A stretch of 64,000 bases of DNA from the NCBI RefSeq assembly GCF_022484265.1, contig NZ_JAKVLR010000001.1, forward strand, positions 1,126,783 through 1,190,782, in the 5' to 3' direction. Shown here piece after piece: positions 2,333 through 60,086 of this stretch. The position numbers and the translations under genes are program-made. Origin of the DNA: Companilactobacillus sp. (GTDB lineage Bacteria; Bacillota; Bacilli; Lactobacillales; Lactobacillaceae). The notes beneath the pieces were generated by a model. It made no database searches and had not been told where the DNA came from. It saw only the letters and a list, made by a program, of their open reading frames with translations. The first letter of the stretch is position 1; the number at the start of each line of letters is the position of its first letter.

Positions 2333-2384
2333 AAAAAATGTTCAAAGTTTCCTTTTTAATAGGAAATACTTTGAACATTTTTTT
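2333..2384. terminator. bidirectional terminator (serves the 2450..3214 gene on the minus strand)
   Basis: AAAAAATGTTCAAAGTTTCC...GGAAATACTTTGAACATTTTTTT: a long stem flanked by an A-run and a T-run. Confidence 0.7.
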
Positions 2385-2449
2385 AGCCGTTTCATTTATC
2401 GCTTGTTAAATGTGATTTATCGAAATTACAATTGTGAACTTTAAATAAA

Positions 2450-3214
2450 TTATCTACGACGGTGCTTAACAAATGTTACCCAGTGCAAGATCACTGCGAG
2501 TAGAACAAAGAAGATCACCACAAAACTAACATAGCTTACCCAAAAATTATTCATTGGCATAATAGCTTTGAGTGGTATTTGAATTCCCATTGTGACCAAT
2601 GCCATAACGGCAATCATGAAGAATAGTTGAATATATCTTTTCACGGTTGAATCATCCTTTTCTTGTTTTTTCGAAATCTTATGACCAAACTTTTTGCATA
2701 GCTTGATTTTCTTTTCAGGTATTTCTTTCATACCAAACGTGTTGGGTAATACTAATTCCCCGACTTTGATAACCCCTGCTGCTGACATGACACGATCAAT
2801 GGTCTTGAAGGTCTCGTCAGTAATTCCGGTTAAAAAGTTTTCAGTCGTACTCATGTAGCACGATGAAATACTCATGTAATGCTTATCTTTGAATGGTCCA
2901 GGGATCGTATCGCCATTATCTTTGAAGTAGACGAACTTTGGACGCATGCAGTCAAAGAAATTTTTTAAAAGGCCTGGACATTCGCGCCAATAAGTTGGAG
3001 CAGAAAACACCCAAACATCGCTCTCCATTAGCTTATTTGCTAATTCATCGAGGACTGGATTTTCTTCATGATACTTGTGTGGCGTAATGTTGTAATTTTC
3101 TAAATAAATTGTTTCTGTTTCGACTCCCGAGTCAACATTATCGAGAACATGCTCTAACATTTGGGCATTAAGGCCATGTTCCTTATGTGACGCTAATATA
3201 CCTAATATTTTCAT
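2450..3214 (-). CDS. flavodoxin-like fold NAD(P)H-dependent oxidoreductase with C-terminal membrane anchor
   Basis: N-terminus MKILGILASHK... and the SAPTYW motif fit the flavodoxin_2/FMN-reductase type. The last ~60 aa form two hydrophobic helices. Confidence 0.55.
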   Translation of the reverse strand: MKILGILASHKEHGLNAQMLEHVLDNVDSGVETETIYLENYNITPHKYHEENPVLDELANKLMESDVWVFSAPTYWRECPGLLKNFFDCMRPKFVYFKDNGDTIPGPFKDKHYMSISSCYMSTTENFLTGITDETFKTIDRVMSAAGVIKVGELVLPNTFGMKEIPEKKIKLCKKFGHKISKKQEKDDSTVKRYIQLFFMIAVMALVTMGIQIPLKAIMPMNNFWVSYVSFVVIFFVLLAVILHWVTFVKHRRR

Positions 3215-6242: not shown

Positions 6243-7094
6243 CTAGTTATCATTAAATTTACCCATAATTTCAAGCGTTGGCTGAATGTTGATAAAAGCA
6301 TTCGGATCCATTTTATTGACGGTCTTTTTAACGAAGAATAATTGATACTTGGTCAAAACCATCGTCATCGAACCGATTTGCTCGCCTGAGTATGCTCCGG
6401 TCAAATTGTAGTCGATCGTGATACCACGGTTCAAACTGTCCAACAGCTTCTTAGCTATTTCGTCGATCATGTGCGAATAAACTGTTACAGTGATCTTTTG
6501 TTGTTGGATATACATTCGGTCGATCACAATGTTTGTGATAAAAATCGAGACGATACTGTATAGTGCTAATTCCCAACCGAAGACAAATCCAGCAATCAAG
6601 ACAATGATTCCATTAACGATAAATCCTAATTGTCCAACTGTCCCACCATGATTTTTTTGAATAATCAAGGCGATAATATCAGTTCCACCAGCAGAAAATC
6701 CGTAGCGGAACACTAGTCCGGAACCAATTCCCACTAAGACTCCACCAAAGATGGAAGCTAGCATTGGGTCATGTGTGATTGGATGTAACGGTATGAATAA
6801 AATCAAGATTGAAGCTGAGGCAATCGACAGAAGCGATAGAACGGTAAATCTTTTTCCTAGTTTCAACCAAGCCAATATTATCAGCGGTACGTTAATCAAG
6901 AAATACCAGAAATAGACCTCAGTGTTAAAGTTGGTCGCTTTATAGATCAGGTTGACGACTAACTGTGCCGCACCCATTGTCCCCACGGTATAAATTTTTG
7001 ACGGCTGCAGCAAAAGCTGAACTCCTAATGCCGAAGTTAAACCGTATAAAATTGCGGCTGCAATTTTTTCTGAATAGTCTTTAAATAAGGACAT
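6243..7094 (-). CDS. YitT family membrane protein (DUF161 + DUF2179), paralog 1
   Basis: Start moved to MSLFKDYSEK (ATG 7094) behind a GGGGGTG RBS. 283 aa, collinear with the neighbouring paralog. Confidence 0.7.
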   Translation of the reverse strand: MSLFKDYSEKIAAAILYGLTSALGVQLLLQPSKIYTVGTMGAAQLVVNLIYKATNFNTEVYFWYFLINVPLIILAWLKLGKRFTVLSLLSIASASILILFIPLHPITHDPMLASIFGGVLVGIGSGLVFRYGFSAGGTDIIALIIQKNHGGTVGQLGFIVNGIIVLIAGFVFGWELALYSIVSIFITNIVIDRMYIQQQKITVTVYSHMIDEIAKKLLDSLNRGITIDYNLTGAYSGEQIGSMTMVLTKYQLFFVKKTVNKMDPNAFINIQPTLEIMGKFNDN

Positions 7095-7247
7095 ACCAGC
7101 ACCCCCATAACGAGCGAAATAATAAATATATTGTTGCCTTAAAATCAATGTATCTATTATTGACCGATAATTCAATGATAATTCAGAAAATTTACGGTTA
7201 AAAAAAAGAATCTAATCCTAATTTGGATCAGATCCTATTTTGTCTAA

Positions 7248-8099
7248 TTAATTATCGCTGAATTTACCCATAATACCAATGGTTGGCTGGATATTGATAA
7301 AGGCAGTCGGATCGACTTTTTTCACAGTTTGTTTGACAAAGAATAGTTGATACTTCGTCAAGACCATGGTCATCGAACCAATTTGTTCGCCTGAATAAGC
7401 ACCCGTCAAATTGTGATCCAAGGTAATACCACGGTTTAATGTCTTCAATAGTTCTTTGGAGATGTCATCAATGTGGTGCGAGTAGATAATGACGGTGATC
7501 TTCTGTTGCTGGATGTACATTCGGTCGATCACGATATTAGTTACAAAAATCGAGATGATTGTGTAAAGAGCTAGCTCCCAACCGAAGACGATTCCGGCAA
7601 TAAAAACGATCACGGCATTCACGGTAAATGCCACTTGTCCGACTGTTCCACCACGACTCTTTTGAATAATCAAAGCGATGATATCAGTTCCACCAGTCGA
7701 GAATCCGTAACGGAAACAGATTCCAGAACCAACACCGACCATGGCGCCACCGAAGATCGATGCTAACATTGGATCATCAGTTATTGGATGCAGCGGAATG
7801 AATAAGATAAAAATTGATGCGGCAGCAATTGAAACTAGTGATAAGACAGTAAACTTCTTGCCTAATTTTTTCCAAGATAGAATTATTAATGGCACGTTCA
7901 ACAAGAAGTACCAAAGATAAACTTCAGTATTCAGATGTGAGAATTTGTTGATCAAGTTTACGACCAACTGTGCGGCACCCATGACGCCACTGGTATAAAT
8001 CTTCGCCGGCTGCAATAGTAATTGGATACCGATTGCAGACGTTATCCCGTAAAATATCGCTGCAAAAATTTTTTTCGAATATTCTTTAAATACAGCCAT
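7248..8099 (-). CDS. YitT family membrane protein (DUF161 + DUF2179), paralog 2
   Basis: Start at MAVFKEYSKK (ATG 8099) behind a GGGGGTGG RBS. 283 aa, with most aligned positions identical to paralog 1 by eye. Confidence 0.7.
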   Translation of the reverse strand: MAVFKEYSKKIFAAIFYGITSAIGIQLLLQPAKIYTSGVMGAAQLVVNLINKFSHLNTEVYLWYFLLNVPLIILSWKKLGKKFTVLSLVSIAAASIFILFIPLHPITDDPMLASIFGGAMVGVGSGICFRYGFSTGGTDIIALIIQKSRGGTVGQVAFTVNAVIVFIAGIVFGWELALYTIISIFVTNIVIDRMYIQQQKITVIIYSHHIDDISKELLKTLNRGITLDHNLTGAYSGEQIGSMTMVLTKYQLFFVKQTVKKVDPTAFINIQPTIGIMGKFSDN

Positions 8100-8288
8100 G
8101 GCAGCCACCCCCAAAATTCAATATTAAAAATTATATAACATTACAATATTAATTCATACATAATACTTTCAAATGTCGTTAAATAACCAGTCATCAGATA
8201 TTTCTGAGTAAGCGTAATACATGTATCAGCCATTTTTCAATGTTAAACTGAAATTAATTAATCAATGATTTTATAAGGAGACATAACT

Positions 8289-9155
8289 ATGAAAAAAATT
8301 GGTTTTATTGGAACTGGCGTTATGGGCAGTGGCATTATCAATAACTTGTTAAAAGCTAACTACGATGTTTCTGTATATACGAGAACTGAATCCAAAGCTG
8401 AACCTTTACTTAAAGAAGGCGCTAAATGGTTCAACAGTCCCAAAGATCTTACGGAAAATGTTGATATCATCTTTACTATGGTTGGTTTTCCACAAGATGT
8501 CAAAGATGTTTACTTAGACCCACAGACTGGCGTTTTCACGAGCCTAAAGGCTGGGCAAATGATTGTTGATATGACGACTAGCACCCCTACTCTTGCCAAA
8601 GAATTGGGTGAAAAAGCTGAAAAAATGAACGTTGAATGTCTAGATGCTCCGGTATCAGGTGGCGACGTTGGTGCTAGAGATGGCAAACTGACCATTATGG
8701 TTGGAGGCTCTCAAAAGGCTTACGACGAATTGATTCCCTTATTTAAAGTTATCGGTCAATCTTATCACCGCTTTGGTTCATACGGCGCTGGCCAACACAC
8801 CAAAATGGCGAACCAGATCATGATTGCCGGTACCATGACCGGACTAACTGAGATGCTAGTTTATGCCAAAGCTGCTGGGCTCGACTTACCTGACGTCTTG
8901 AAGACTCTCGAAGGTGGCGGAGCCGACAACTGGAGCATGGAAAACTACGTCCCACGAATTTTAAATGGCGACTTCAAACCAGGCTTCTTCTCAAAACATT
9001 TCTTAAAAGATCTCCGAATCGCACTTGAAGAAAGCGAGAAGATGGGACTAGATTTACCAGCCACAAAACAAGCCAAAGCATTGTATGAAAAATTAGTGGA
9101 CGACAAAGGTCTCGGAAACGATGGAACTCAAGCTTTAGTTAAACTTTGGTGGTAA
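8289..9155 (+). CDS. NAD(P)-dependent beta-hydroxyacid dehydrogenase family oxidoreductase (3-hydroxyisobutyrate/2-hydroxy-3-oxopropionate reductase-like)
   Basis: 288 aa with a GFIGTGVMG Rossmann motif and a C-terminal 6PGDH-like helical domain. Confidence 0.75.
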   Translation: MKKIGFIGTGVMGSGIINNLLKANYDVSVYTRTESKAEPLLKEGAKWFNSPKDLTENVDIIFTMVGFPQDVKDVYLDPQTGVFTSLKAGQMIVDMTTSTPTLAKELGEKAEKMNVECLDAPVSGGDVGARDGKLTIMVGGSQKAYDELIPLFKVIGQSYHRFGSYGAGQHTKMANQIMIAGTMTGLTEMLVYAKAAGLDLPDVLKTLEGGGADNWSMENYVPRILNGDFKPGFFSKHFLKDLRIALEESEKMGLDLPATKQAKALYEKLVDDKGLGNDGTQALVKLWW

Positions 9156-9210
9156 AAAAATATGGAGCACATCGAATAATTGAACTATTCGAACAGTGCT
9201 CCATTTTTTT
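9154..9210. terminator. bidirectional terminator between convergent genes
   Basis: ATGGAGCAC...GTGCTCCAT outer stem with an inner TCGAATA/TATTCGA stem, flanked by an A-run and a T-run. Confidence 0.7.
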
Positions 9211-9634
9211 ATTCCACAGCAAGTGTTTTTTCAAAACGATTATTTTCTCCACGTTGTGCTAAACACATCAATATAATCAGTAAAATATAACCAACGCCAG
9301 GTACCACTAACCAGAGCATCCACCAAGCGCGTAAGTTTAAATCGTGCAAACGGCGAATTGCCGCATTATAAATTGCAATAAAATAGTAGCCAAATGCCAT
9401 CGCCATCGCTACGCCGATCACAGCACTCCAGTAAACTTCAGAGATTGGCATCAAGGTTACGACCCAGCCTAATAAGGCAATCAAGACAGCAAAGAAAATC
9501 GTTGTGCCTAAATAACCCCACCAGAAATCAGCGCGTCCCATGCGTTTGGCACCGACAAATAAGTCTTGAAAAAATAGTTTTGTTGAAGCGATTAAACCTG
9601 GTTTGTTAGTTTCATTCCAATTAGTTTTTTCCAT
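9209..9634 (-). CDS. DUF805 family membrane protein
   Basis: 141 aa with four hydrophobic segments. The RRLHDLNLRAWW motif is characteristic of DUF805/YhaH-like proteins. Confidence 0.6.
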   Translation of the reverse strand: MEKTNWNETNKPGLIASTKLFFQDLFVGAKRMGRADFWWGYLGTTIFFAVLIALLGWVVTLMPISEVYWSAVIGVAMAMAFGYYFIAIYNAAIRRLHDLNLRAWWMLWLVVPGVGYILLIILMCLAQRGENNRFEKTLAVE

Positions 9635-9643
9635 AATTACCTC

Positions 9644-9985
9644 TTAAATTATTATCCCGAGTAAAAATCCGAGTAGTCCAAATAAATATGAAGAACAGAA
9701 ATATAAGAAACACACTATGTAGCGCTTTTGAAACCACAGTTGGCTTAACTCATAGTTAAATGTTCCAAAAGTAGTAAAGCCGCCGCAAATTCCGGTTCCT
9801 AAAAAGACTAATAAGGCCTTGTTTACAATTTTAGCAGTTAACATCCCTAAAACAAATGATCCGACCACATTTATTATCAATGTCATCCAAGGAAAATCAA
9901 TTGGAATTTTTCGCGACAATCCAGTCAATTCATTTCTGGCAGTCGCCCCGATCGTTGCCCCTAAGGCAACCAGCACAATATTCAT
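9644..9985 (-). CDS. crcB: fluoride channel subunit CrcB/Fluc
   Basis: 113 aa with four TM segments and a GGFTTFGTF motif. Confidence 0.8.
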   Translation of the reverse strand: MNIVLVALGATIGATARNELTGLSRKIPIDFPWMTLIINVVGSFVLGMLTAKIVNKALLVFLGTGICGGFTTFGTFNYELSQLWFQKRYIVCFLYFCSSYLFGLLGFLLGIII

Positions 9986-12302: not shown

Positions 12303-13655
12303 TTACAAAACTAAACTTAGTAGCAAGACACCGATCAGACCAACTACGGCGATCAATGTTTCAAGTACTGTCCAAGTGAGCAGCGTTTCTTTAATAGTTA
12401 GATCAAAGTACTCTCTAAACATCCAGAAACCAGCATCGTTGACGTGAGATGCGGCAAGTGAACCGGCACCAACTGCCAATACCATCAAGGCTGGATTTAC
12501 ACCAGCTGATTGCATTAGTGGAAGTACTAGACCAGCAGCTGTTAACGAAGCAACTGTGGCGGAACCTAGAGCAATTCTCTAGACTACTGCGATTACCCAA
12601 CCTAGGATAAGTGGTGAAAGATTTGTACCTGAGAAGAGTTTCATAACTGCATCACCAACGCCACCATCAATTAAAACTTGTTTGAAGGCACCGCCACCAC
12701 CGATAACTAGTAGCAACATAGCGATTGATTTAACAGCTTCTTCAACTGTGTGCATGATTTGTGGAGTTTTGAATCTTCTAGCCCAACCCATCGTGTACAT
12801 TGCAACTAGCAATGAAATTGTCATTGAAATTGCTGGTGTTCCGATGAAGGCAATAATTGAATCTAAAGTCGATGGATTCTTTGGTAAATGTCCACCATTA
12901 AATAGCAATTGATAAATTGTGGTAATTGCCATCAAAATAACTGGGAACAATGAAGTAATAACGGAAATTCCAAAGCCAGGTGTATCTTCAAGCTTAAATT
13001 CCTTTTGAGGACCTAAAGCTGACAAGTTACCTTTTCTATCAAAGGCATCTGGAACGATTTTTCTAGCCACACGTGTGTAAAGTGGTCCGGCGATAATAAC
13101 CGCAGGAATAGCCACGATAATACCGTAAAGCAAAACGTGTCCAGCATTGGCGCCTAATACGGCACTAATGGCAGTTGGAGCTGGATGTGGTGGCAAGAAT
13201 CCATGAGTAACGGACAGTGCTGCTGCCATTGGAATTCCTAAATACAGAATTGAAACTCCAGCTTCCATAGCAATGGCGAAGACGATTGGTACTAACAGAA
13301 CCATACCTACTTCAAAGAATAGTGCAATACCGATAATAAATGATGCTAAAACGATTGCTAACTGTAGTCTCTTTTTTCCAAATTTCTGGATCAAGGTGTG
13401 GGCAATTCGATATGCACCACCGGCATCAGCAACCAAACGACCAAGCATGGCACCAAAACCGAAGACAATTGACAACTCGCCTAACTGACTTCCGATACCA
13501 TCTTGGATACTGGTGGCGATTTTGGTCAGTGGCAATCCCAAACCAACACCAACAGCAATTGAAGTAACGACTAATGAAACAAAAGTATTTAATTTTACTT
13601 TGATGATCAAGAACAACAATAGAGCTATTCCTAAGATCAGCACAACAAATGGCAT
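12303..13655 (-). pseudogene. gntP: gluconate:H+ symporter GntP interrupted by one in-frame TAG
   Basis: ORFs 12579..13655 and 12303..12515 share one frame. Reading through the TAG at 12579-12581 gives ...GWVIAVV*RIALGSATVASLTAAGLVLPLMQSAG..., a continuous GntP-like 450-codon frame. Confidence 0.8.
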
Positions 13656-13724: not shown

Positions 13725-15275
13725 TTATTTTTCTTGGTGCTCTTTCATATGTTTCTTCTGAAATTCAGCGATACTCTTATATTCTGGTGCTAGAATCTTA
13801 GAAACTCTGATCCAGATTGGTAGTAATTCACGGTAAACTTCAAAATTCTTTTCTTCTGGATGGTGGACGTTAGTAACCCCGACCATGTTCTTAACTTCTG
13901 ATAGATCATCGATGTAGCCTAATGAGTACATTCCTAGAACTGCGGCACCTAAACATGAGCTTTCAAAACTTTCGGGAATCGTAACATCTTGTTCAAAAAT
14001 ATCAGCTAACATTTGTCTCCAAAGAGCTGAACGAGCAAAACCACCAGTAGCTTGAATACTCTTAGGCTTTCCAGCAACTCCTTCGATCATCAACATAACC
14101 ATGTACAAGTTATAAACGATACCTTCTAGAGCGGCACGAACCATGTGGGCACGTGTATGTTGACGTGTTAGTCCAAAGAATGAACCTCTAGCATAAGCGT
14201 TCCAAATTGGTGCACGTTCTCCACCTAGATATGGATGGAATAGTAAGCCATCAGAACCAGCTGGGATTTTTTCAGCAATCTGCGTCAAAATGTCGTAAGA
14301 AGAAACTTGCATTTGTTCGGCAGTGATCTTTTCAGGTGCGAACAATTGATCGCGGACCCAACGGAAGACGATACCACCGTTATTGACTGGGCCACCAACG
14401 ACCCATTTGTCCTTGGTCAAGGCATAACAGAATAATCTACCATTTGGGTCAACGACTGGCTTGTCAACAACTACACGAACGGCACCAGATGTACCGATCG
14501 TAACGGCAACAACACCAGGGTCGATAGCGTTAACGCCTAAGTTTGATAGGACACCGTCAGATGCACCAAAGATAAATGGTACATCTTCGCCAATGCCGAG
14601 CAATTCACCATAGTTTTTGTTGATACCTTTGATTTGGTCAGTTGGTTCAACTAATTCTGGCAAACGGTCTTCAGTCACATCTAATAAATCAAGTGCTTGT
14701 GGTTCCCACTTTAATTTAAAAATGTTGAACATCCCGGTAGCTGATGCAATTGAATATTCCATCTGATAAACGCCAAAGAATCTGTAGAAAACATAAGTCT
14801 TTAAGTCGATAAACTTTTTCGCCTTATTATAAAGGTCTGGCTTTTCATTCTTTAACCAAAGCATCTTTGATAGAGGTGCCATTGGATGGATTGGCGTACC
14901 AGTCTTGGCATAGATCTCTGCACCTAAGCCATTGTTCTTCAAGTCTTCACTGTATTGAGCAGCACGGTTATCAGCCCATGTGATCGCACGTGTGAGTGGT
15001 TGGTCGTTTTCATCCATCAAAATCAAACTGTGCATTGCTGATGAGAATGAAACACCCTTGAGTTCGCCAGGTTTAACCTTACCCTTGCGCATAACTTGTC
15101 CTAATACTTCAACCACAGCGTCAAAGATATCTTCTGGATCTTCTTCAGCCATATCAGGAGTATCTTGATACAATTGGTATCCACTATTGGCATATGCAAT
15201 AACTTTACCCTTCATATCGTATAAAACTGCTTTTGTACTTGTTGTACCAATGTCGGCACCAATCATATAATCCAT
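13725..15275 (-). CDS. gntK: gluconokinase (FGGY carbohydrate kinase family)
   Basis: 516 aa with FGGY N- and C-domains (GADIGTTSTKAVL...). It lies between gnd and gntP. Confidence 0.8.
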   Translation of the reverse strand: MDYMIGADIGTTSTKAVLYDMKGKVIAYANSGYQLYQDTPDMAEEDPEDIFDAVVEVLGQVMRKGKVKPGELKGVSFSSAMHSLILMDENDQPLTRAITWADNRAAQYSEDLKNNGLGAEIYAKTGTPIHPMAPLSKMLWLKNEKPDLYNKAKKFIDLKTYVFYRFFGVYQMEYSIASATGMFNIFKLKWEPQALDLLDVTEDRLPELVEPTDQIKGINKNYGELLGIGEDVPFIFGASDGVLSNLGVNAIDPGVVAVTIGTSGAVRVVVDKPVVDPNGRLFCYALTKDKWVVGGPVNNGGIVFRWVRDQLFAPEKITAEQMQVSSYDILTQIAEKIPAGSDGLLFHPYLGGERAPIWNAYARGSFFGLTRQHTRAHMVRAALEGIVYNLYMVMLMIEGVAGKPKSIQATGGFARSALWRQMLADIFEQDVTIPESFESSCLGAAVLGMYSLGYIDDLSEVKNMVGVTNVHHPEEKNFEVYRELLPIWIRVSKILAPEYKSIAEFQKKHMKEHQEK

Positions 15276-16333: not shown

Positions 16334-17194
16334 ATGGCAAAAAACATTAATTACGTAATTCAGAGTTACTACCATAATTTAAAAGGTACTTATAAAGAAA
16401 TAGCTGATTATATTTTGCACACCGAATCGTTTGATTCCGCTTTGACAATCAGCTCGTTGGCTGAAGAAGTGAATGTATCGATCTCTTCGATCTCACGATT
16501 TGCTAAAATTTTAGGTTTTTCCAGCTTCCAAGATTTTAAACTCAGTTTGATCACGTCTAGTTCAGACTCATCAGATTCGTTGTTCCAAGATATCACTGCC
16601 AACGATTCTTACATGACGATGACTCAAAAGATTTTTAATGGAAACATCTCGACCCTCAAAGCTACTGAAAAAGTGTTGACTGAGCGACAGTTAGAACAAG
16701 CTTCTACCATCATTGAAGAATCTGACTGCGTCGCCTTTTTTGGACTAGGAGCTTCGGGAATCGTTGCCCAAGACGGATTCCACAAATTCCTCCGTTCTGA
16801 TAAAAAGCCTTATTTCACCACTGACTTCCACATGCAATTGATGATGGCCACCAAACTGACTGAAAAAGATTGTGCCATTGTAATCTCCCATAGTGGCGAG
16901 AACCAGGACACCTTGCAGATCGTGTCAGAACTAAGAAAAAACCACGTTAAGATCATCGGAATCACCAGTTACGGCAATTCCAGTCTGACCCACTTAGTCG
17001 ACGTCTGCCTGCTGTCGATCTCAGATGAAACGCAGTACCAAAACGAAGCGTTGCACGCCATCATTGCTCAGATCAGTTTAGTCGATACACTATTCATGAT
17101 CACAGCCGTCCATGACGAACAACAAACTAGTACCGTCTTTAAAGAAATCAGAAGCACCATCAATCTCACTAGAAAAACCGCTGAAAAAAAATAG
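16334..17194 (+). CDS. MurR/RpiR family transcriptional regulator (HTH + SIS), divergent from the gluconate operon
   Basis: 286 aa with an N-terminal HTH_6 (ISSLAEEVNVSISSISRFAK) and a SIS domain (FFGLGASG). Confidence 0.75.
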   Translation: MAKNINYVIQSYYHNLKGTYKEIADYILHTESFDSALTISSLAEEVNVSISSISRFAKILGFSSFQDFKLSLITSSSDSSDSLFQDITANDSYMTMTQKIFNGNISTLKATEKVLTERQLEQASTIIEESDCVAFFGLGASGIVAQDGFHKFLRSDKKPYFTTDFHMQLMMATKLTEKDCAIVISHSGENQDTLQIVSELRKNHVKIIGITSYGNSSLTHLVDVCLLSISDETQYQNEALHAIIAQISLVDTLFMITAVHDEQQTSTVFKEIRSTINLTRKTAEKK

Positions 17195-17228
17195 AGGATG
17201 TCTGCATATGCAGATATCCTCTTATTTT
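17193..17228 (+). terminator. rho-independent terminator after RpiR-family gene
   Basis: AGAGGATGTCTGCA-TAT-GCAGATATCCTCT followed by a T-rich tail. Confidence 0.75.
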
Positions 17229-17238
17229 GATTTGACGG

Positions 17239-17460
17239 ACAAACTCTTCCGCTTAACTACTGAATGAAATGATTGCACAGTACGCAATCCTTCCATTCTT
17301 ACGTTAATGCTCGGAAATTACCCGCTTTTGACACTCTCTAATCTGAAACGAGCTTATAAAAACAGACTTTTCCGCTTGCCACGGATATGGCTGATTGCAT
17401 AAACCGCAATAAGTCATATCCTGAGCAATGCTCGAAGTCTAACCGTTTTTAACGCTCTCT
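17239..17460. repeat. two tandem ~100-nt hairpin repeat units (U1 17239-17339, U2 17362-17460)
   Basis: The units share flanks (TTCCGCTT... and ...AATGCTCGRA...CTCTCT). The central stems differ but stay complementary: GAATGAAATGATTGC/GCAATCCTTCCATTC in U1 and GGATATGGCTGATTGC/GCAATAAGTCATATCC in U2. Confidence 0.75.
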
Positions 17461-18105
17461 TTATTTTATAAATCTGTTCCACCAATGTTCTTTTTTCTCG
17501 TCTGTTACTTGCATGTTGACGAGCGTATTTAGGTTGGCATCCTTGCCGGCTTCTTTTTTACTCTTATCATCGTCTTTGTTAGCTTCATCAGCCTTGGCTT
17601 TTTTCTCTTTAGCCTGACGAACTGTCTTTAGATATTCTTGATACTTCTTATCTTTTTCAAGTTTCTCATCAGTTTCTTCAGCCCCTGTTTCTTCCTGAAG
17701 TTTGATGATCTTCTTGCTCAAGTTTTGAATAACGCGGTCTTGTTGCTCAATGTTAGCACGCAACTCTTTGATAGTATTTTCCAAATTAGCTACCTGCGCG
17801 TTATGAGTACCATTGCTAGCATCCGTTGTGCCGTCATTGTTAGCTTCAGACACTGGATAAATTTGCTTAGCTGCTGATTCCAAAGTCATTTTGGGACCAT
17901 GTCCAAGTTCAACCATTTTATTGAAATCATCAATGTTCTTTTGAGTATACAAACGGTTATTCTGCTTGTTACGTTCGAAGTATCCACCGTTATTAGTTGA
18001 ATGTTCGACAATTAAAGAGTATTTCCGTAGCGTGGCAACGCTGATCCCCAAAATTTCGGCTGCCTGAGCCGGTGTTAAAAATTTAGTATTCTTCGTATTT
18101 GTCAA
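17461..18105 (-). CDS. MerR/excisionase-like HTH protein with coiled-coil and Lys/Glu-rich tail
   Basis: LTPAQAAEILGISVATLRKY is an HTH. The central region is heptad-like and the C-terminus is charged. TTG start behind GGGGGA. Confidence 0.45.
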   Translation of the reverse strand: MTNTKNTKFLTPAQAAEILGISVATLRKYSLIVEHSTNNGGYFERNKQNNRLYTQKNIDDFNKMVELGHGPKMTLESAAKQIYPVSEANNDGTTDASNGTHNAQVANLENTIKELRANIEQQDRVIQNLSKKIIKLQEETGAEETDEKLEKDKKYQEYLKTVRQAKEKKAKADEANKDDDKSKKEAGKDANLNTLVNMQVTDEKKEHWWNRFIK

Positions 18106-19460: not shown

Positions 19461-20876
19461 TTGTCAAGTTCAACGATAACAGGTAATTTTATAATCATTC
19501 TAATTACCTTTATATTTGCTTTCTTCTGTGTTGCCGCCGAGTTTGCTTTGGTTCAAACCAGACCAAGTCTTCTGGAAGATGCCATTGAAAAAGGCGATGG
19601 TAATCCCAAGAAGTTACAACGTGCATTAAATATGGTCAACAATCTGAACGAATACTTATCAACTACTCAAGTTGGTACTAGTATCGCTGGTATTATCTTA
19701 GGTTGGATTGGTGAAGGAACCATTGAATATTTGCTGGTTGAACTCTTCGGTATGACCCATGCTATCAATAGCAGCGGTCTTCATATCATTGGTTCGATTG
19801 TTGGTGTTCTTCTACTAACATACTTTGAAGTGGTCCTAACTGAAATCGTTCCTAAGAACATTTCAATCGATCGTCCATTGCAAATGTTAATGTTAGTCGT
19901 AAATCCATTAAGATTTTTCCATCTAGCTGTTTACCCATTCGTTTGGTTGTTGAACAGTTCATCAAACGGAATCGTTCGTTTGATGGGTATGAAACCTGCC
20001 GATTCAGAAAACCAAGTTTTTTCTCAATCTGAAATTTTGAACTTATCGAAGTCTTCAATCAAAGGCGGAGATATGGATCAAAACGATGTTGTCTTCATGG
20101 AACGTGCATTTGAATTAAACGATAAAGTTGCCAAAGACATCATGGTCGATAGAACTAGTCTTTATGTCGTCGACATCACTGATAAAGTTAGCGATGTCAT
20201 CAAAGACTACTTGCAACAAGGTTTTTCAAGATTTCCAGTCGTTGCGGACAACGATAAGGATAAGGTCCTAGGATACGTTTATGCCTACGATATCGTTCGT
20301 CAAAACCAAGTTGACGGATCAGTCGGAATCAGTCGGATCTTGAGATCAGTCAACACAGTTCCTGAAACAATGCCAATTCAAGATATCCTATCAAAAATGA
20401 TCAAGAAGCAAACTCCAATCGTCATCGTTGTCGATGAGTACGGTGGGACTTCTGGTATCGTGACTGATAAAGATATTTACGAAGAATTATTCGGAACTGT
20501 TAAGGATGAAATCGATGTCGTTTCTGATGAATATATCATCAAAAACGAAGACAAGTCTTACAACGTATCTGGTAAGACTACACTTTATGATTTTGAAAGA
20601 TACTTTAGAACTGATATTAAAGCCTTTCAAGAGTCAGATATTATTACTGTTGGTGGTTATATCTTAGAGAAATTCCCTAATATCCAGCTGAATTCAGAAT
20701 TTAATCTCGATAACTTCCACTTTAAGGTGGCGGAATTCGATCATGGTTTTGCTAACTGGTTCAAGGTCACGATCGATGATGATGAGGTTACCAAGAGTGG
20801 CAATCTTGCATCGCTAACTGAGGTTGATGATTTGAAGGAAGAGTCGGATGATACGAAAGGTAAAGATGATAAGTAA
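19461..20876 (+). CDS. CNNM/HlyC-CorC family transporter (DUF21 + CBS pair + CorC_HlyC)
   Basis: 471 aa with an N-terminal four-TM DUF21, tandem CBS domains and a C-terminal transporter-associated domain. TTG start with an AAGAGG RBS. Confidence 0.75.
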   Translation: MSSSTITGNFIIILITFIFAFFCVAAEFALVQTRPSLLEDAIEKGDGNPKKLQRALNMVNNLNEYLSTTQVGTSIAGIILGWIGEGTIEYLLVELFGMTHAINSSGLHIIGSIVGVLLLTYFEVVLTEIVPKNISIDRPLQMLMLVVNPLRFFHLAVYPFVWLLNSSSNGIVRLMGMKPADSENQVFSQSEILNLSKSSIKGGDMDQNDVVFMERAFELNDKVAKDIMVDRTSLYVVDITDKVSDVIKDYLQQGFSRFPVVADNDKDKVLGYVYAYDIVRQNQVDGSVGISRILRSVNTVPETMPIQDILSKMIKKQTPIVIVVDEYGGTSGIVTDKDIYEELFGTVKDEIDVVSDEYIIKNEDKSYNVSGKTTLYDFERYFRTDIKAFQESDIITVGGYILEKFPNIQLNSEFNLDNFHFKVAEFDHGFANWFKVTIDDDEVTKSGNLASLTEVDDLKEESDDTKGKDDK

Positions 20877-20906
20877 AGGAAGACCGTTGGGTCTTCCTTT
20901 TTTTGT
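20877..20906 (+). terminator. rho-independent terminator after CNNM gene
   Basis: AGGAAGACC-gttg-GGTCTTCCT followed by TTTTTTT. Confidence 0.8.
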
Positions 20907-20915
20907 TTTTTTTGT

Positions 20916-21150
20916 AGGCGGTATGAGGGCCGACTCCGGACGAAAATTGCTTTCGGGGATCCGTGACATGCTGGGCACAACTTTAAGCCAAGTGTCACTG
21001 CGTGACGGCTTGTCTTAAAGCTTGGCCTCATCCTAAGCAATAAATTGCTAAGGATGATTTCAGCATTTGGTCCCCACGCGATTTTCGTCCTCCGTCTAAA
21101 CAGCGTTACTTCAAAATCTCTGTGTATATTGAAATATGGTATGCGAACTC
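20916..21150 (-). repeat. structured modular repeat, copy A (inverted orientation, diverged interior)
   Basis: The reverse complement reads linker (GTTCGCATACCATATTTCAATATACACAGAGATTTTGA...) + GGAGGACGAAAATCGCGTGGGG ... CCCCGAAAGCAATTTTCGTCCGGAG + GGCCCTCATACC. The outer stem and linker match copies B, C and D. Confidence 0.7.
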
Positions 21151-21203
21151 TGCTGGCAAGAACTTTAGTTTTAAACCTTCAAGCCCTTAAGACCATATCA
21201 ATT

Positions 21204-21244
21204 AAAAAGGAGAAAGCCCAACTTCTTGGCTTTCTCCTTTTTTC
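21204..21244. terminator. bidirectional terminator
   Basis: AAGGAGAAAGCC...GGCTTTCTCCTT flanked by an A-run and a T-run. Confidence 0.8.
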
Positions 21245-21284
21245 TGTCTGGAAACATATTTGATTTTGGTTGTCCTTATATTGG

Positions 21285-21800
21285 TTAGTCTTCGTTCTTC
21301 GCATTTACGTATGTTAGTAGATCTTTGTTTACGTTGTCGTCTAACATGTCGAAGAATAGCTTGTCGGTGTCGATTCCTAGTGCCTTTGCACAAACTTTTA
21401 CCACTAAGCTTTCATGTCGCTGGTTCAGCTCTTCGGTTCTCTCCATTGTTTGGACGTCCTCCGTTTGAAACTTCAGACTATATTGATCTAGAAAATTCAT
21501 AGCCTCGGCTGAAATCTCGTTTGTATCCAGCTGATCACGCATGTCAGATGATTCATTTACGATATTGATAATCGTCGTCAAATGTTCATCGACCATTGCT
21601 TGGAACCACTCCAATGGATACTCGCGTGGCTTTCTCTTGGAAGAATTTTCCACTCTAAAGCGAGATTCACCATATTGTTGAGCATGCTTTTCCGTATCAA
21701 AGTCTCGAACCCAGTTGGAAACAGTCCGAACCGTAACGCCAACATCCCCTTCATCAAAAATAACTTGCATATCATTCACAGTTAAAAATTTTGATTCCAT
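21285..21800 (-). CDS. hypothetical protein with possible N-terminal HTH
   Basis: 171 aa with a strong AAGGAG RBS. VTVRTVSNWVRDF is HTH-like. No family recognised. Confidence 0.4.
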   Translation of the reverse strand: MESKFLTVNDMQVIFDEGDVGVTVRTVSNWVRDFDTEKHAQQYGESRFRVENSSKRKPREYPLEWFQAMVDEHLTTIINIVNESSDMRDQLDTNEISAEAMNFLDQYSLKFQTEDVQTMERTEELNQRHESLVVKVCAKALGIDTDKLFFDMLDDNVNKDLLTYVNAKNED

Positions 21801-22151
21801 AATAGAACTCCTTCTAGGTCACTTGAATTTTGAAGTGGTACTCGCAACCTCTTTGACAATCACAAATTACCATACGAAAAAGCCGTAAACAAATGGAAAA
21901 AGCCCAAATAATTTCTACTTTAAATCGGAAGAATCTTCAACAATTGAAGCAACTAAAGAATAGAAACAAACTAGAATCGTTTCATTTAATCAGAACAATC
22001 GCCTTTTTAAAAAGTCGAGGATTACTGATAAATCAGGATTCCCAATATTTCATTTTATTTTCTTTTAAAAAATTTTTGTTTCTTTTAAAAATTGAATACC
22101 ATGTACCAAACTGCTAAATTACAGACGAACAGCAATAGGAGGGAACGCATT

Positions 22152-22760
22152 ATGATATTCAGATTTATAAAAGATTGCATCAAATACATATTTAACTGGT
22201 CATTTTTCGGTTACTTTTCAATCGTAGGAATCCTCGGTTTGATATTCGGACTACAATCAGCACACCAAGTAAATGTTGATCTGCAACAAACCATCCAAAT
22301 AAACGGCATCCAACATTATACGAATGCGGCAATATTTAAATTCCACATGGGAGAAATCCGAAGCTACCTATTCGTGCTATTGAATTTACTATACTTCCCA
22401 TCAGTCATGAGATTAGTAGCAAATATTCCATTTCTAGGAAAATTTTTTAACAACTTCGGCCAGCCAGCAAATGCATTGATCAAAGCAAGCAATTTTGCAA
22501 AAGGCGCTTATAACAATACCGATACAGGACAACGTCCAGTTGTAAGAAGACAAGGATCGTTTCTAGTATTCGGATTATTGAATAATCCAATTTATAACGG
22601 AGCGGCCTCAGCAAATGCACTAGTAGCATTCATAATTTCCTTAGTAGTATCACTAATAGCATTAGCCGGAATGCTGTACATATGGAACTACGCATTTTAC
22701 GCAGGATTAATAATCGTCCCATTGTCAGTAATCTGGGATAACATTATACAGACAAACTAG
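22152..22760 (+). CDS. hypothetical membrane protein
   Basis: Start at ATG 22152 behind AGGAGGGAA. 202 aa with 3-4 hydrophobic segments. No family recognised. Confidence 0.45.
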   Translation: MIFRFIKDCIKYIFNWSFFGYFSIVGILGLIFGLQSAHQVNVDLQQTIQINGIQHYTNAAIFKFHMGEIRSYLFVLLNLLYFPSVMRLVANIPFLGKFFNNFGQPANALIKASNFAKGAYNNTDTGQRPVVRRQGSFLVFGLLNNPIYNGAASANALVAFIISLVVSLIALAGMLYIWNYAFYAGLIIVPLSVIWDNIIQTN

Positions 22761-22763
22761 ACG

Positions 22764-22794
22764 GGAGAATCTGAAATTAAGATTCTCTTTTTTT
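22764..22794 (+). terminator. rho-independent terminator
   Basis: GAGAATC...GATTCTC followed by TTTTTTT. Confidence 0.75.
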
Positions 22795-22808
22795 ATTTAT
22801 ATAAAATT

Positions 22809-23160
22809 GGTGACTCCGAAGGAGGAACAAATCGGCATCAGTGACTCCGAAAGGAGGAGCGAAATTGAACCGACCACCCCAGATTTTTCACCAACAAAAC
22901 TGGCATACCCTCTTTCACCAAACAAAAGAGAATTTGACTTGACTCAACCCAGGCGGAGGACGGAAAGCGATGCCCGGCTCAGTAGAGACATTTTCGTTAG
23001 CCGGCGACAACGCCAGCTTACGAAAAGAGGCAGATTTGAGATTTTTTCGGGCTTTGAAAAAAGCTCAAAGTGTCTCCTCTACGTTCCAGACGAAAGGCAA
23101 TCACTTTTCGTCCGGAGCCGGCAGTGAACCACCAATCCAAGAATCCACCACAAACAAAAA
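22809..23160 (+). repeat. structured modular repeat, copy B (degenerate half-sites + linker 22900-22951 + module 22952-23122 + tail)
   Basis: GGCGGAGGACGGAAAGCGATGCC...GGCAATCACTTTTCGTCCGGAGCC is the outer stem. Internal hairpins lie at 22991-23026 and 23035-23069. Two 30-nt direct half-site repeats start at 22810 and 22841. Confidence 0.8.
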
Positions 23161-23209
23161 CAAAATAAAAAAGGACTCGCCCAGCGAGTCCTGTCCATCA
23201 ATTCTCTAA

Positions 23210-23563
23210 TTAAGCTTTAACAGAATCAAAATCAATAATATTCACGCTATTATCAATAGTTTCAAAATCATTCTTAAACACTAAAAGTTGAGTTTTGGGA
23301 TTAACATGAAGTTGAATACCAGGCTTGAGAAATTCCTCAGCACTCTCCTTGTAATAAATCGGACCCATAACACTGTCCAACTTAATAGAATAGTCTGAAA
23401 GATCCTCGTCCTTGTCCACCATAATAATACGGAACTTAGTGATCAAGGCACAGTCACCCTCACCAGAAAAACGACCCAAACCATCATCAAGATCCAAAAT
23501 AATATTCTTGTCGTTAAACTTTGCTAATTTTGCTTGTGCTTCTGGAGTAATTTCTATCTTCAT
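23210..23563 (-). CDS. HesB/Fe-S_biosyn-like small protein
   Basis: 117 aa. The MKIEITPEAQAKL... N-terminus resembles lactobacillal proteins annotated as iron-sulfur cluster biosynthesis family. RBS GAGGAG. Confidence 0.45.
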   Translation of the reverse strand: MKIEITPEAQAKLAKFNDKNIILDLDDGLGRFSGEGDCALITKFRIIMVDKDEDLSDYSIKLDSVMGPIYYKESAEEFLKPGIQLHVNPKTQLLVFKNDFETIDNSVNIIDFDSVKA

Positions 23564-27660: not shown

Positions 27661-29436
27661 ATGCGTGAAGGTGCAACAATTGAACGTGGTTTGCCTAAAA
27701 CTAACAAACCAACTAGCAAATTTAAGTTCAAAGATTTTTTGCAATTGATCAATAGCGTTAATCCCAAGAAATCGCTATTTCTATTAGGAATGCTCTTGAG
27801 TTTGGTCACCAGTGGCGCCAGCTTGATCGTTCCACAATTGACCAAGGGACTAGTTGATACTAGTGGACTTTCAAAAATTGACGGTAAGATGCTAGCCGTT
27901 TTGATACTAGCCTTCGTCATCCAACTAGGGTTTGGAACCATCGGTGGTTTCATTCTACGATACGTCGGTGAAAGTTCTGTGAAGACTTTGCGAGAAAAAC
28001 TCTGGGCTCACCTGCTAAGACTTCCCGTCGATTATTTCGATGACCACAAGTCTGGTGAGAGCAGTTCTCGAGTAGTCAACGATACTAGCGTTATCAAAGA
28101 TCTGATAACATCGCAGTTCCCTAACTTCATCACCGGAGCCATCCAATTAGTCGGTTCAATGATAATTTTATTTTTCATGGACTGGAAGATGGCATCATTA
28201 ATGTTCAGCATCGTTCCAATCGTTGTTTTGATCCTATTCCCAATCGGAAAAATCATGGCACGTTTAGGTAGAAAGCTTCAAGCTGCGACAGCTGACTTTA
28301 ACGCTGATGTCAGTGAAAAATTATCAGAAGTACGTTTGATCAAGGCCAGCAATGGTGAAGAATTTGAAAAAGTAACCGGTCGCGGATTTATCGACAAGAT
28401 CTTTAAAGTTGGTATCAAAGATGCCAAAGTTGAAGCTGTCCTCAGCCCCATCATGACAACCGTGATGCTAGGTGTCTTCGTTGGTATCTTAGGATACGGT
28501 GCAGTGAGAATCCAACAAGGAACACTTTCAAGTGGTTCCTTAGTAGCATTCTTACTTTACTTGTTCAACATCATCACCCCAGTAGCAAGCTTTGCGACAT
28601 TCTTCTCGCAAGTCCAAAAAGCAATGGGTTCAACAGAACGTATCCAAGAAATTCTCCACACAGAACCAGAAGTAACTACAACCGGTGAAGCAGTTGATGT
28701 AGAAGGAAAAGAAATCACAGCCGCACACTTGAACTTCAGCTATGATCCCGACCATCAAATCCTGCACGACGTTTCATTTGAAGCTAAACCAAACACAGTA
28801 GTAGCCTTCGCGGGACCAAGTGGCGGAGGTAAATCAACAATTTTTTCATTATTGGAAAGATTTTACCAGCCAGACAACGGTTCAATCCTAATCGGAGAAC
28901 ATGACATCAAAGACATCGACTTAGCCAACTGGCGTTCCCAAATCGGTTACGTTTCCCAAGACAGCGCAGTATTCGCCGGAAGCATCCGCGAAAACTTGCA
29001 ATACGGACTAGGCAAAAAGTTGACCGACGAACAATTGTGGAACGGATTATCCTTAGCGTATGCAGACGGATTCGTCAAAGACTTCCCAGAACAATTAGAC
29101 ACGCAAATCGGCGAGCACGGCGTCAAGCTATCCGGAGGACAAAAACAAAGAATAGCAATCGCCAGAGCCTTCTTGAGAGATCCAAAAATCCTAATGCTAG
29201 ACGAAGCCACAGCCAGCTTGGACTCAGAATCAGAAGAAAAAGTCCAACTAGCACTAGATCAACTAATGGTAGGAAGAACCACCCTAGTAATAGCCCACAG
29301 ACTATCAACAATAGTCGATGCCGACCAAATCTACTTCATTGAAAAAGGAGCAGTAACAGGTCATGGAACACATAAAGAACTAATGACAACACATCAGCTA
29401 TACAAACAATATGTAAATGAGCAGATGGTAAATTAA
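27661..29436 (+). CDS. ABC transporter, fused permease/ATP-binding (type I exporter, multidrug-like)
   Basis: 591 aa with six N-terminal TM segments. Walker A is GPSGGGKST, the signature is LSGGQKQR and Walker B is LMLDEATA. Confidence 0.85.
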   Translation: MREGATIERGLPKTNKPTSKFKFKDFLQLINSVNPKKSLFLLGMLLSLVTSGASLIVPQLTKGLVDTSGLSKIDGKMLAVLILAFVIQLGFGTIGGFILRYVGESSVKTLREKLWAHLLRLPVDYFDDHKSGESSSRVVNDTSVIKDLITSQFPNFITGAIQLVGSMIILFFMDWKMASLMFSIVPIVVLILFPIGKIMARLGRKLQAATADFNADVSEKLSEVRLIKASNGEEFEKVTGRGFIDKIFKVGIKDAKVEAVLSPIMTTVMLGVFVGILGYGAVRIQQGTLSSGSLVAFLLYLFNIITPVASFATFFSQVQKAMGSTERIQEILHTEPEVTTTGEAVDVEGKEITAAHLNFSYDPDHQILHDVSFEAKPNTVVAFAGPSGGGKSTIFSLLERFYQPDNGSILIGEHDIKDIDLANWRSQIGYVSQDSAVFAGSIRENLQYGLGKKLTDEQLWNGLSLAYADGFVKDFPEQLDTQIGEHGVKLSGGQKQRIAIARAFLRDPKILMLDEATASLDSESEEKVQLALDQLMVGRTTLVIAHRLSTIVDADQIYFIEKGAVTGHGTHKELMTTHQLYKQYVNEQMVN

Positions 29437-29447
29437 AAAAAGAGCGT

Positions 29448-29553
29448 AAAAGCACCCGGGTGAGGCAATAATATAAGATTGCACAATACGGTGGGGACCA
29501 TTTGGCCCCAGAGTGTTGGGCAAGCGAATATCCCCTGCCTCAGGGTGCTTTTT
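29448..29553 (+). repeat. 106-nt long hairpin element acting as terminator of the ABC gene
   Basis: AAAAGCACCCGGGTGAGGCA ... TGCCTCAGGGTGCTTTTT, with an inner GGGGACC-attt-GGCCCC hairpin. Confidence 0.6.
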
Positions 29554-29693
29554 CGTGTTTCCACTATAAAGATAGAAGCGACCAATCCAAAAAGGTAAAT
29601 CAGGCAATGAGGGCAAACAAGCGAAGCGAGTTTGACCGGCAAATTAGAAGAGAATAAATGTCGATAGACATAAACTAAATTTTTGAGAAAACA

Positions 29694-29940
29694 CCGCCAT
29701 CATACCCTCATTCAATAATATATAGAGATTTTGACTCGAACAAGATTAGGCGGAGGACGGAAATCGATGCCCGGCTCAGTAGGGACATTTTCGTTAGCCG
29801 GCGACGACGCCAGCTTACGAAAAGAGGCAGCTTTGAGATGTTTTCGGTTTGTGAAAATAGCTCAAAGTGTCTCCCCTACGTTCCAGACGAAAGGCAATCG
29901 ATTTCCGTCCGGAGCCGGCCCGCATACCACAAACAAATCA
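29694..29940 (+). repeat. structured modular repeat, copy C (linker 29694-29748 + module 29749-29918 + partial linker)
   Basis: Near-identical to copy B, with paired substitutions in the stems. It ends with GGCCCGCATACCAC. Confidence 0.85.
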
Positions 29941-29988
29941 GTCAACATCAAAAAAGACGACTTCCCAATCATCCAAGAAATCGTCTTT

Positions 29989-52426: not shown

Positions 52427-53010
52427 GCAAGCAACCCATATTCCAACAAATATAGAGGCTTTTGAATGGTTAAATCTGAGTTCATGCGAAAGATGCAAGC
52501 ATACCTTATTTCAACAAACATAAAGGTTCTTGGTTCGTTTTAAATTAAAGTTTAAACAAAGGCTGCAAGCATACCTTCTTTCAACAAACATAGAGGTATT
52601 TGACTTAAACCAGACTAGCCGTACGGTTGGGATTGCGTTGGCCCAAGTAGAGAAGAAAGGAACGTACGTCGCCCTTGGCGCATGCGCCACTGTCTAAAAT
52701 GTTGGCTACGCCAACGAACAACCAAGGATGACGAAGCCAACAAAGCAATCCCAATAATACGGCGGCCCGCATACCTTCTTTCAACAAATATAGAGGTATT
52801 TGACTTAAACCAGACCAGCCGGAGGACGGAAATCGATGCCCCGGCCCAATGGTGGCGTTTATGTTAGTCGACGATGACGGCGACTTACATAAAAAGGCAG
52901 CTTTGAGATTTTTTCGGTCTTTGAAAAAAGCTCAAAGTGTCTTCACCATGTTCCGGCCGACAAGGGCAATTGATTTCCGTCCGGAGGAGGCCCGCATACC
53001 ACCAACAAAA
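52427..53010 (+). repeat. array of the structured modular repeat: linkers L1-L4 (52427, 52495, 52565, 52764), modules D1 (52618-52766) and D2 (52818-52989), terminal partial linker
   Basis: GCAAGCATACCTTCTTTCAACAAACATAGAGGTATTTGACTTAAACCAGAC-type linker is repeated four times. D2 matches copies B and C. D1 has a different sequence but the same stem layout. Confidence 0.85.
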
Positions 53011-53037
53011 AAAGGCTAAGCCACAAATGGCTTAACC
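53007..53037 (-). terminator. rho-independent terminator after ddl
   Basis: The minus strand reads GGTTAAGCC-atttgt-GGCTTAGCC followed by TTTTTTT. Confidence 0.6.
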
Positions 53038-53042
53038 CCTGA

Positions 53043-60053: not shown

Positions 60054-60086
60054 ATTACGCAAATTAAAAATTTAAAGGTGAGCAAT

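Follow-up and report, generated by a model that had tools for sequence, protein, structure and literature searches.

A composite repeat in the window

The window, by which we mean the whole 64,000-nt stretch of Companilactobacillus sp. DNA analysed here, contains ordinary chromosomal genes and no transposase, and between these genes it holds four bodies of a repeated module (A, B, C and D2) together with a unit, D1, that carries the same leader in front of a different cargo. A full unit consists of a leader of ~48 nt, a body of ~170 nt and a short tail, and totals ~230 nt. The 5′ leader before each module can be written as GCATACC..TTTGACTT.. or as GCATACC..TTCAACAAA..AGAGG.ATTTGACTT.., the 3′ tail behind each module ends in ..CGGCCCGCATACC or ..CGGCAGTGAAC, and CATACC is present at both ends of most units.

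Copy B lies between the gene at 22092-22760 and the convergent gene at 23210-23563. Its body (22951-23121, plus strand), delineated by sequence, fold and a covariance-model score of 188 bits, comprises P0, a GGA/GGA loop, P1, P1b and a three-way junction of P2, P3 and P4. The leader of B (22903-22950, plus strand; GCATACCCTCTTTCACC...TTTGACTTGACTC..) was recognized as repeat family D4, by pattern matches and by an nhmmer match spanning 22903-23133, and the extent of that match also delimits a type 2 tail (23122-23133, plus strand; CAGTGAACC..), which recurs in copies I, J and L022m from outside the window. Copy B is flanked by intrinsic terminators on both sides, that of the upstream gene at 22763-22789 (plus strand) and that of the convergent gene at 23172-23192 (minus strand), the latter with its T-tract toward the B tail and 50 nt from the B body. 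A small repeated hairpin module, GACTCC-GAAA-GGAGGAGC (complement GGAGGAGCAACCGCGACTCC), is also found beside leaders; it occurs twice upstream of B (22805-22870) and again at ~9790-9830 of locus L024 and ~9800-9840 of locus L026. Several kinds of short repeat module seem to make up the intergenic DNA of this species in mosaic fashion.

Copy C has its leader at 29700-29747 (repeat family and nhmmer), its body at 29748-29918 (sequence, fold and 199.8 bits with the covariance model) and a type 1 tail at 29919-29931 (CCCGCATACC..), all on the plus strand, and the terminator hairpin of the neighbouring convergent gene lies at 29955-29986 on the minus strand, 36 nt from the body. Copies B and C share 81-93% identity over 120-258 nt. 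The spacer from the stop codon of the ABC-transporter gene to the C leader (29434-29684) is the most diverged stretch between two strains of the species, with 19 differences in 250 nt versus 2-10 per 250 nt elsewhere, and may contain the remains of a repeat module.

In the D region, four units of 62-228 nt, each opened by GCATACC, form a tandem array. From its start at 52437 (plus strand; 52437-52568, repeat family D5) it runs through a degenerate leader (~52437-52470) and a leader-only unit (52499-52568) to D1 (52569-52768, plus strand), in which the same leader is followed by a cargo with its own outer stem (CCGTACGGTTGGGATTGCGTTGGC / GCCAACAAAGCAATCCCAATAATACGG), and ends with the leader (52769-52816), body (52817-52990; sequence, fold and 181 bits) and tail (52991-53003; CCCGCATACC..) of D2, all on the plus strand. 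The terminator of the convergent gene 53043-54101 follows 3′ of the D2 tail at 53011-53040. The D1 cargo core is also present in the chimeric copies H and K. As a second cargo core (GGAACGTACGTCGCC.TTGGCGC.TG.GC.ACTG..AAAATGTTGGCTACGCCAACGAAC) it is found in three units, two of them chimeras, at 52617-52768 in the window (D1), ~9600-9680 of L026 (minus strand) and 18880-18950 of L028, and it has no Rfam match. A likeness to group II intron domain V in D1 (GCCGTACGGTT) was rejected, as it had no Rfam support.

Copy A belongs to a divergent subfamily and lies on the minus strand, with its body at 20930-21097 (90 bits with the first covariance model and 128 bits with the second), its leader at 21098-21144 and its tail (CCCTCATACC..) at 20917-20929, where it adjoins the terminator (20875-20900) of the convergent gene 19461-20876. 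Its layout is that of B, C and D2, and yet its P2, P3 and P4 sequences are all different, P2 being ATGCTG/CAGCAT. Copies A and B face each other (20917-23133) across 1.85 kb holding three genes (21285-21800, 21893-22117 and 22092-22760), none of which has a Pfam domain. We considered and rejected the idea that the enclosed genes are transposase cargo; they lack Pfam domains, and by inspection their products resemble a small DNA-binding protein and a membrane protein.

The sequence-only reading had described the modules of B, C and D2, and when checked in the sequence all of the coordinates and motifs it gave for them were correct. It had overlooked the ~48-nt 5′ leader, the short 3′ tail and the fourth copy, A (minus strand, 20917-21144).

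The fold and its paired differences

The body, 160-190 nt long across copies, is built from P0, a symmetric GGA/GGA internal loop, a P1 of 14-17 bp, P1b and the three-way junction P2/P3/P4. In module C, P0 and the GGA/GGA loop are followed by a 14-bp P1 with a bulged A, a short P1b, a P2 of 6 bp, P3 and P4; the free energy of this fold is −86.1 kcal/mol versus −55.2 ± 5.0 kcal/mol for dinucleotide shuffles (z = −6.2), and 0 of 200 shuffles were as good. The G+C content of the copies is ~51%, against 39% for the genome. Differences between the window copies come in matched pairs, as had been claimed: P2 is GTAGAG/CTCTAC in B (22982-22987/23077-23082), GTAGGG/CCCTAC in C and ATGGTG/CACCAT in D2; for P3, B and C have TTTTCGT..ACGAAAA where D2 has TTTATGT..ACATAAA; and the stem adjoining P2 reads CGGCT/AGACG in copies B and C, CGGCC/GGCCG in D2.

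Larger sets of copies bear out the proposal of a common junction fold kept by paired changes. Among ten close copies, 97.1% of the pair cells can pair and 17 pairs have changed on both sides; these pairing values were matched by 0 of 500 shuffles, and controls with slid partners pair at ~40%. With four divergent subfamilies included, 96.4% of the cells pair in 16 copies and 52 of 65 pairs have changed on both sides, in an alignment that was fitted to the covariance model. RNAalifold, making its own structure prediction on this model-fitted alignment, returned the same architecture. Between subfamilies, paired columns are 35-56% identical versus 47-78% for unpaired columns, and 23-31 of the 65 pairs differ on both sides with pairing kept. 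The subfamilies have the architecture and the unpaired nucleotides in common and not the sequences of the stems, as the aligned copies show. That the fold is under constraint is solid.

The claim that multi-nucleotide compensatory changes maintain the fold held in part. In the 98%-identical strain GCA_030150535.1, a patch in the orthologue of copy C turns its P3 into the exact P3 of copy F, which is located elsewhere in the genome relative to copy C, and variants of P2, P3 and P1b occur in differing combinations among copies. Copies trade hairpins by gene conversion between paralogues, so that the multi-nucleotide paired differences among close copies are at least partly whole-hairpin swaps rather than independent compensatory substitutions. 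Because cell counts therefore inflate the number of independent events within the B-type subfamily, it is the between-subfamily comparisons that carry the argument, and there the structure-preserving divergence is real, with the deeper subfamilies differing in their stems and keeping the fold.

A set of non-Watson-Crick features varies little or not at all: the GGA/GGA loop, a T/T mismatch within TTAG/CTTA in P3, the CA before P2, an A/G mismatch together with a bulged G in P4, and the GTTCC after P2. Four of the subfamilies other than the B type have C-GNA-G triloops at their hairpin tips, and a single GNRA tetraloop was seen. The C-GNA-G triloop is a motif characteristic of unusually stable DNA hairpins; these tips are a hint, not proof, of DNA hairpins. 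A hairpin loop of the form CG-NN(C/T)TT-TG recurs on varying arms, namely P4 in the B-type copies (in the window at 23044-23064 and 29841-29861), P3 in L016 and P5 in the L021 copies, and may represent a shared binding motif. A T-loop reading of GTTCCAGAC was rejected by inspection, position 58 being G in D2-type copies.

The wobble pairs had been taken as a hint of pairing at the RNA level. They do point to one strand over the other: 45 cells are G-T and 9 are A-C, a contrast that weakens when counted by column (13 pairs contain a G-T at least once, 6 an A-C). In folding calculations the named strand came out as the more stable of the two in 14 of 15 copies under RNA parameters and in 17 of 17 under DNA parameters, the latter preference holding in all eight subfamilies and species variants. 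The wobble pairs do not imply RNA, since G-T also favours single-stranded DNA. One strand is clearly preferred, in a manner compatible with RNA and single-stranded DNA alike.

Spread, position and mosaicism

By way of a flanking ABC transporter, the window was assigned to the Companilactobacillus species represented by GCA_022483845.1 (2.67 Mb). Copies were gathered well beyond the window by nhmmer and covariance models, in the same species, a sister species and C. heilongjiangensis. In 117 kb from the same species we found 11 further bodies or chimeras. Because gene callers translate the modules as spurious ORFs, a translated-frame search with a focused 62-aa alignment returned nine ORFs called in modules, all from this species, and the DNA around them yielded copies E, F, G, I, J, K, M and N, as well as four minus-strand partners placed head-to-head a few hundred bases upstream of plus-strand copies. 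A covariance model from the close copies recovered the divergent subfamilies A, L022m, L029m, the partial L024m and L016, the last of which comes from a sister species and lies 3′ of the orthologue of the ABC-transporter gene. A second model added three copies in C. heilongjiangensis, each with an extra hairpin, and found none in 21 kb of C. musae. In the DNA examined the density is approximately one copy per 13-20 kb. Copies B and C occupy the same places in the two 98%-identical strains, and short-read contigs of the second strain, GCA_030150535.1, end inside copies. Head-to-head pairs are frequent and mix subfamilies, with the minus copy upstream of the plus copy and 220-250 nt between the bodies (L022 9571-10166; L024 9565-10166; L026 9525-10156; L029 9564-10155; L021 8546-9109).

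The module had not been recognized as any named Rfam family, and that assessment stands. Rfam 15 at the gathering threshold gave 0 matches in the window, with only chance-level matches at E < 10 around B, and none for the D array, the L021 copies or the copies in five other loci. Neither 72,556 plasmids, enterococcal ones included, nor a phage collection contained a match to the element motifs, and a scan of viral contigs with two of the motifs gave 0 matches. The P1 arm GGAGGACGGAAANCGATGCC produced three chance matches in unrelated phyla in a genome collection that apparently lacks this species, and GAAAANAGCTCAAAGTGTCT produced seven in a metagenome scan, with the module in none of them. 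Literature searches for a described Lactobacillaceae repeat brought up nothing.

The elements are placed with regard to terminators. In 10 of the 15 copies from this species, the tail adjoins the T-tract of an intrinsic terminator that ends a convergent gene, at a distance of 18-50 nt from the body, the order on the gene strand being hairpin, T-tract and then the element in antisense. L029m probably obeys the same rule by way of a long-loop hairpin that the scan overlooked; L022m, H, I and N are exceptions.

Instead of conserved RNA genes, what emerged is a mosaic, dispersed repeat whose units occur singly, head-to-head and in tandem arrays, with leader-only units present. In the chimeras H and K a D1-type cargo takes the place of the junction, and their P1 arms cannot pair, as they derive from different subfamilies. 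One copy is disrupted by an insertion sequence: an IS3-family element with HTH_28 and rve ORFs (L024 ~7850-9560, record ~1.69 Mb) lies inside the minus-strand copy L024m, where it splits model positions 30-137 from the tail (GGCCCGCATACC at 7835-7846). This IS3 transposase, the sole one seen, interrupts a copy and flanks none.

Signs of movement were sought at several levels. The sister species (L016-18) has a copy in the spacer between the ABC-transporter and adh_short genes, a spacer that is empty in both C. musae and C. heilongjiangensis, at a divergence too great for exact junctions to be drawn; no exact empty site was recovered among the loci compared. No recent movement was seen between the two strains, both of which carry B and C. 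In 13 copies, flank alignments in search of a target-site duplication were no better than shuffles (z < 2.5), and the repeated CATACC belongs to the element itself and is invariant between copies. Long flanking direct repeats, or a Campbell-type duplication, were not significant and were rejected. No mobilizing enzyme or parent insertion sequence, and no TnpA or TnpB gene, was seen in the ~250 kb examined.

Interpretation, alternatives and known repeat families

Module B belongs to a family of dispersed non-coding repeats in Companilactobacillus that keeps its Y-shaped single-strand fold while the stems change, and its behaviour is that of a small, selfish insertion element beside terminators rather than that of an established RNA gene. 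With a probability of about 0.55, we propose that this is a new, shape-defined family of miniature insertion or repeat elements of the BOX/ERIC/EFAR kind that is recognized as a folded single strand, DNA being likelier than RNA. Such a family would be genus-level and non-autonomous, and what defines it would be the shape of one strand rather than a sequence. A trans-acting enzyme, for which a transposase or recombinase acting on single-stranded DNA is the candidate and machinery acting on a transcript the less likely one, would take the folded sense strand as its substrate and insert units next to terminator hairpins; selection on recognition by this enzyme would then maintain the fold, and effects on neighbouring genes, such as transcript stabilization or back-up termination, would be secondary. 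Copy number, spread, fold and covariation, strand asymmetry, the lack of a promoter at a fixed position, proximity to terminators, mosaicism, the hairpin swap between paralogues, interruption by an insertion sequence, the ABC-transporter spacer occupied in one species and empty in two others and the DNA-like triloop tips all speak for the repeat reading. Against it, mismatches and junction bases conserved across species would be expected of a functional RNA or recombination site more than of an ordinary MITE, the preferred strand is mostly not the one predicted by the single-strand model of IS200/IS605, and the ~250 kb examined yielded no mobilizing enzyme, the flanks no target duplication and the compared loci no exact empty site.

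We considered whether the copies might instead be an expressed, structured non-coding RNA family, either a multicopy small RNA or a cis-acting stabilizer or terminator at gene 3′ ends, with the fold selected as RNA. Strong covariation, loops more conserved than stems, the excess of G-U pairs, a sense strand that folds better, a G+C content of ~51% in a 39% genome and conservation across species despite the turnover of stems would all fit such a family, and ERIC, BOX, EFAR and bcr1 are reportedly co-transcribed and RNA-stabilizing. The transcription context, however, argues against it. There is no sigma-70-type promoter at a conserved position on either strand, upstream of leader or body: the leader itself offers TTGACT with no −10 box at 16-19 nt, and an upstream nGACT-19/20-wAwAnT arrangement was rejected as too weak and too widely spaced. 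None of the copies has a sense-strand terminator after the tail, save for one bidirectional hairpin at copy A, and an independent small-RNA gene, with a promoter at conserved distance and a terminator on the same strand, is thus not what the copies resemble. Copies A and B are each enclosed by a pair of terminators from convergent genes, and D2, E, F, G, J and K are oriented against both neighbouring genes, as are most copies, so that it is not obvious what would transcribe the sense strand; most copies appear to sit in gaps that are not transcribed. Polymerase reading through the adjacent terminator would yield the antisense strand, which folds worse. Moreover, chimeras that cannot fold and leader-only units persist, and the hairpin tips are mostly GNA triloops rather than GNRA or UNCG. 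We therefore regard an RNA family as unlikely, if the first alternative to be kept in mind.

Somewhat more doubtful still is a stronger form of the mobile-element idea, namely that the body is a large branched single-strand substrate, built on a three-way junction of ~170 nt, that a Lactobacillaceae enzyme reads by its shape, much as attC or IS200/IS605 ends are recognized by structure, and that homes to intrinsic terminators, or else an RNA-mediated, SINE-like element. Either would amount to a mechanism of mobility or recombination undescribed for this group.

A folded single-strand recombination site, similar to integron attC or to a forked-hairpin phage attachment site, would make the body the site and the leader and short modules its 'cassettes', and would explain tandem arrays bounded by a recurring GCATACC..CAACAAA motif. 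The preservation of structure over sequence, the conserved unpaired and mismatched bases, the strand preference, the mosaic modules, the D array with its four GCATACC-led units of 62-228 nt and the CATACC at both unit ends are all in keeping with it. However, no integrase or recombinase gene lies beside any copy or array examined, there are no cassette ORFs between units, the alignment contains no GTTRRRY/RYYYAAC core and the flanking repeats are without statistical support; integrons are also not known to be a feature of Lactobacillaceae. This we consider improbable.

A recent segmental duplication, a chance palindrome without maintained structure and a small protein-coding gene, for which one can cite the 81-93% identity of B and C over 120-258 nt and a frame that is open through both and called by gene callers, are excluded: other species and divergent subfamilies keep the fold at 35-56% stem identity, the fold has z = −6.2, D2 and A have stops or frameshifts in that frame (as had been noted, the ORF from the ATG within P1 ends after 13 codons in D2), and a HMMER pass over 1.84 billion representative proteins found relatives of the frame in this species only, with no Pfam domain.

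Among the closest named repeats are the EFAR elements of Enterococcus faecalis, also a lactic acid bacterium, which, as reportedly described by Venditti et al. in 2007, are palindromic miniature insertion sequences of ~170 bp that are said to consist of variable assemblies of modules with two-hairpin structures, to be inserted at unrelated stem-loops, probably terminators, near gene 3′ ends, and to be co-transcribed with flanking genes. The ~170-nt body, the mosaic modules and the terminator-proximal position recall this description; the Y-shaped three-way junction on a long stem and the 5′ leader do not, and here the orientation to the terminator is fixed and the better-folding strand is usually the untranscribed one.

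BOX (boxA-boxB(n)-boxC), together with RUP and SPRITE, is known from Streptococcus pneumoniae (PMC3184786). Like BOX, the present family is a modular, intergenic, multicopy, non-coding repeat of Lactobacillales with complementary ends closing a stem and no associated transposase. Its inner part is a conserved three-way junction with covarying hairpins instead of a variable number of boxB, its subfamilies share shape and not sequence, and no sequence relation to BOX emerged in a comparison that covered plasmid and phage collections. ERIC, YPAL, Correia (NEMIS) and bcr1 are structured, MITE-like intergenic repeats, imperfect palindromes of 100-170 bp (PMC2229807, PMC3184786). They share with our family a multicopy, intergenic distribution and a long stem-loop as a single strand. 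In contrast to it, they are defined by a sequence consensus, and Correia elements have in addition a TA duplication and IS-like terminal repeats; in the family described here no target duplication was found, and what is conserved is the unpaired bases and the helix geometry. Compensatory changes have reportedly been noted for some of these repeats as well. As for MITEs in general, the elements are small (<300 bp), non-coding, devoid of a conserved ORF and present in more than 15 copies, with P0/P1 arms forming an imperfect inverted repeat of ~20 bp, and no target-site duplication was recovered.

Structure kept over sequence, conserved mismatches and strand preference are features the family shares with attC sites, REP/REPIN-RAYT systems and IS200/IS605 ends, and the head-to-head pairs resemble REPINs. 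Unlike these, its units are three to eight times larger and branched, have no GTTRRRY core or fixed GTAG/CGTC tag and have no integrase, RAYT or TnpA gene seen nearby, and the preferred strand is mostly the leading-strand template. Specifically, for REP/REPIN, with palindromes of 20-40 nt, the body of 160-190 nt is too large and too branched, and GTAG occurs in P2 of some copies only; for attC there are no GTTRRRY core, no ORFs between units and no integrase among the neighbours; and in comparison with IS200/IS605-derived elements (PATE), whose active strand lies on the lagging-strand template, no duplication was found, position and orientation to terminators are biased, and in 7 of 8 loci it is the C-rich strand, the template of leading-strand synthesis, that folds better. 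As most genes are on the other strand, this last bias is the terminator-orientation bias seen from another angle. For a remnant of a group IIC intron, there is no Rfam group II match, the unit is too short and it lies antisense to the terminator. The family is set apart from the named repeats by a branched body with a leader, by shared geometry and not sequence, by strand asymmetry and by a fixed orientation to the terminator.

If the shape-defined repeat reading is right, Companilactobacillus genomes would carry on the order of a hundred or more fold-selected copies, and there would be a trans-acting factor for a branched single strand as well as targeting of insertion to the sides of terminators, both of which would help in studying how lactic acid bacteria handle single-stranded DNA. 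In practical terms, the family disrupts short-read assemblies, gives rise to spurious ORF calls of 50-130 aa in public databases of annotated genomes, causes gene conversion between loci that lie far apart and could influence 3′-end processing of dozens of genes. It also offers a caution, in that strong covariation and conserved loops are insufficient to call an RNA gene.

Other features were recorded in the same DNA. Two T-box leaders on the plus strand, at 59727-59979 (89.8 bits) and 62206-62488 (89.2 bits), precede the genes 60078-61550 and 62613-63647 and account for repeat family D7; the default scan missed them because their scores fall just under the Rfam gathering score of 93. Repeat family D1 of the window repeat search is explained by tandem paralogous genes for YitT/DUF2179 membrane proteins (6243-7175 and 7248-8114, minus strand), which are 77% identical over 300 nt. 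A GntP permease ORF at 12579-13655 (minus strand) covers only positions 1-348 of the 440-position profile and is followed by ~370 nt of unassigned sequence and then crcB, and the gene may be truncated or frameshifted. In the second strain, GCA_030150535.1, locus L030 contains unrelated tandem repeats of ~140-290 nt (2366-3121 and 16463-17594), each called as minus-strand ORFs of 35-40 aa; a neighbouring small ORF matches Pfam RsaX20, and the family is distinct from the one described here. Finally, L022 contains a match to the Rfam cspA thermoregulator at 14158-14512 (minus strand), scoring 83 bits where the gathering score is 78, upstream of a cold-shock gene at 14203-14403.
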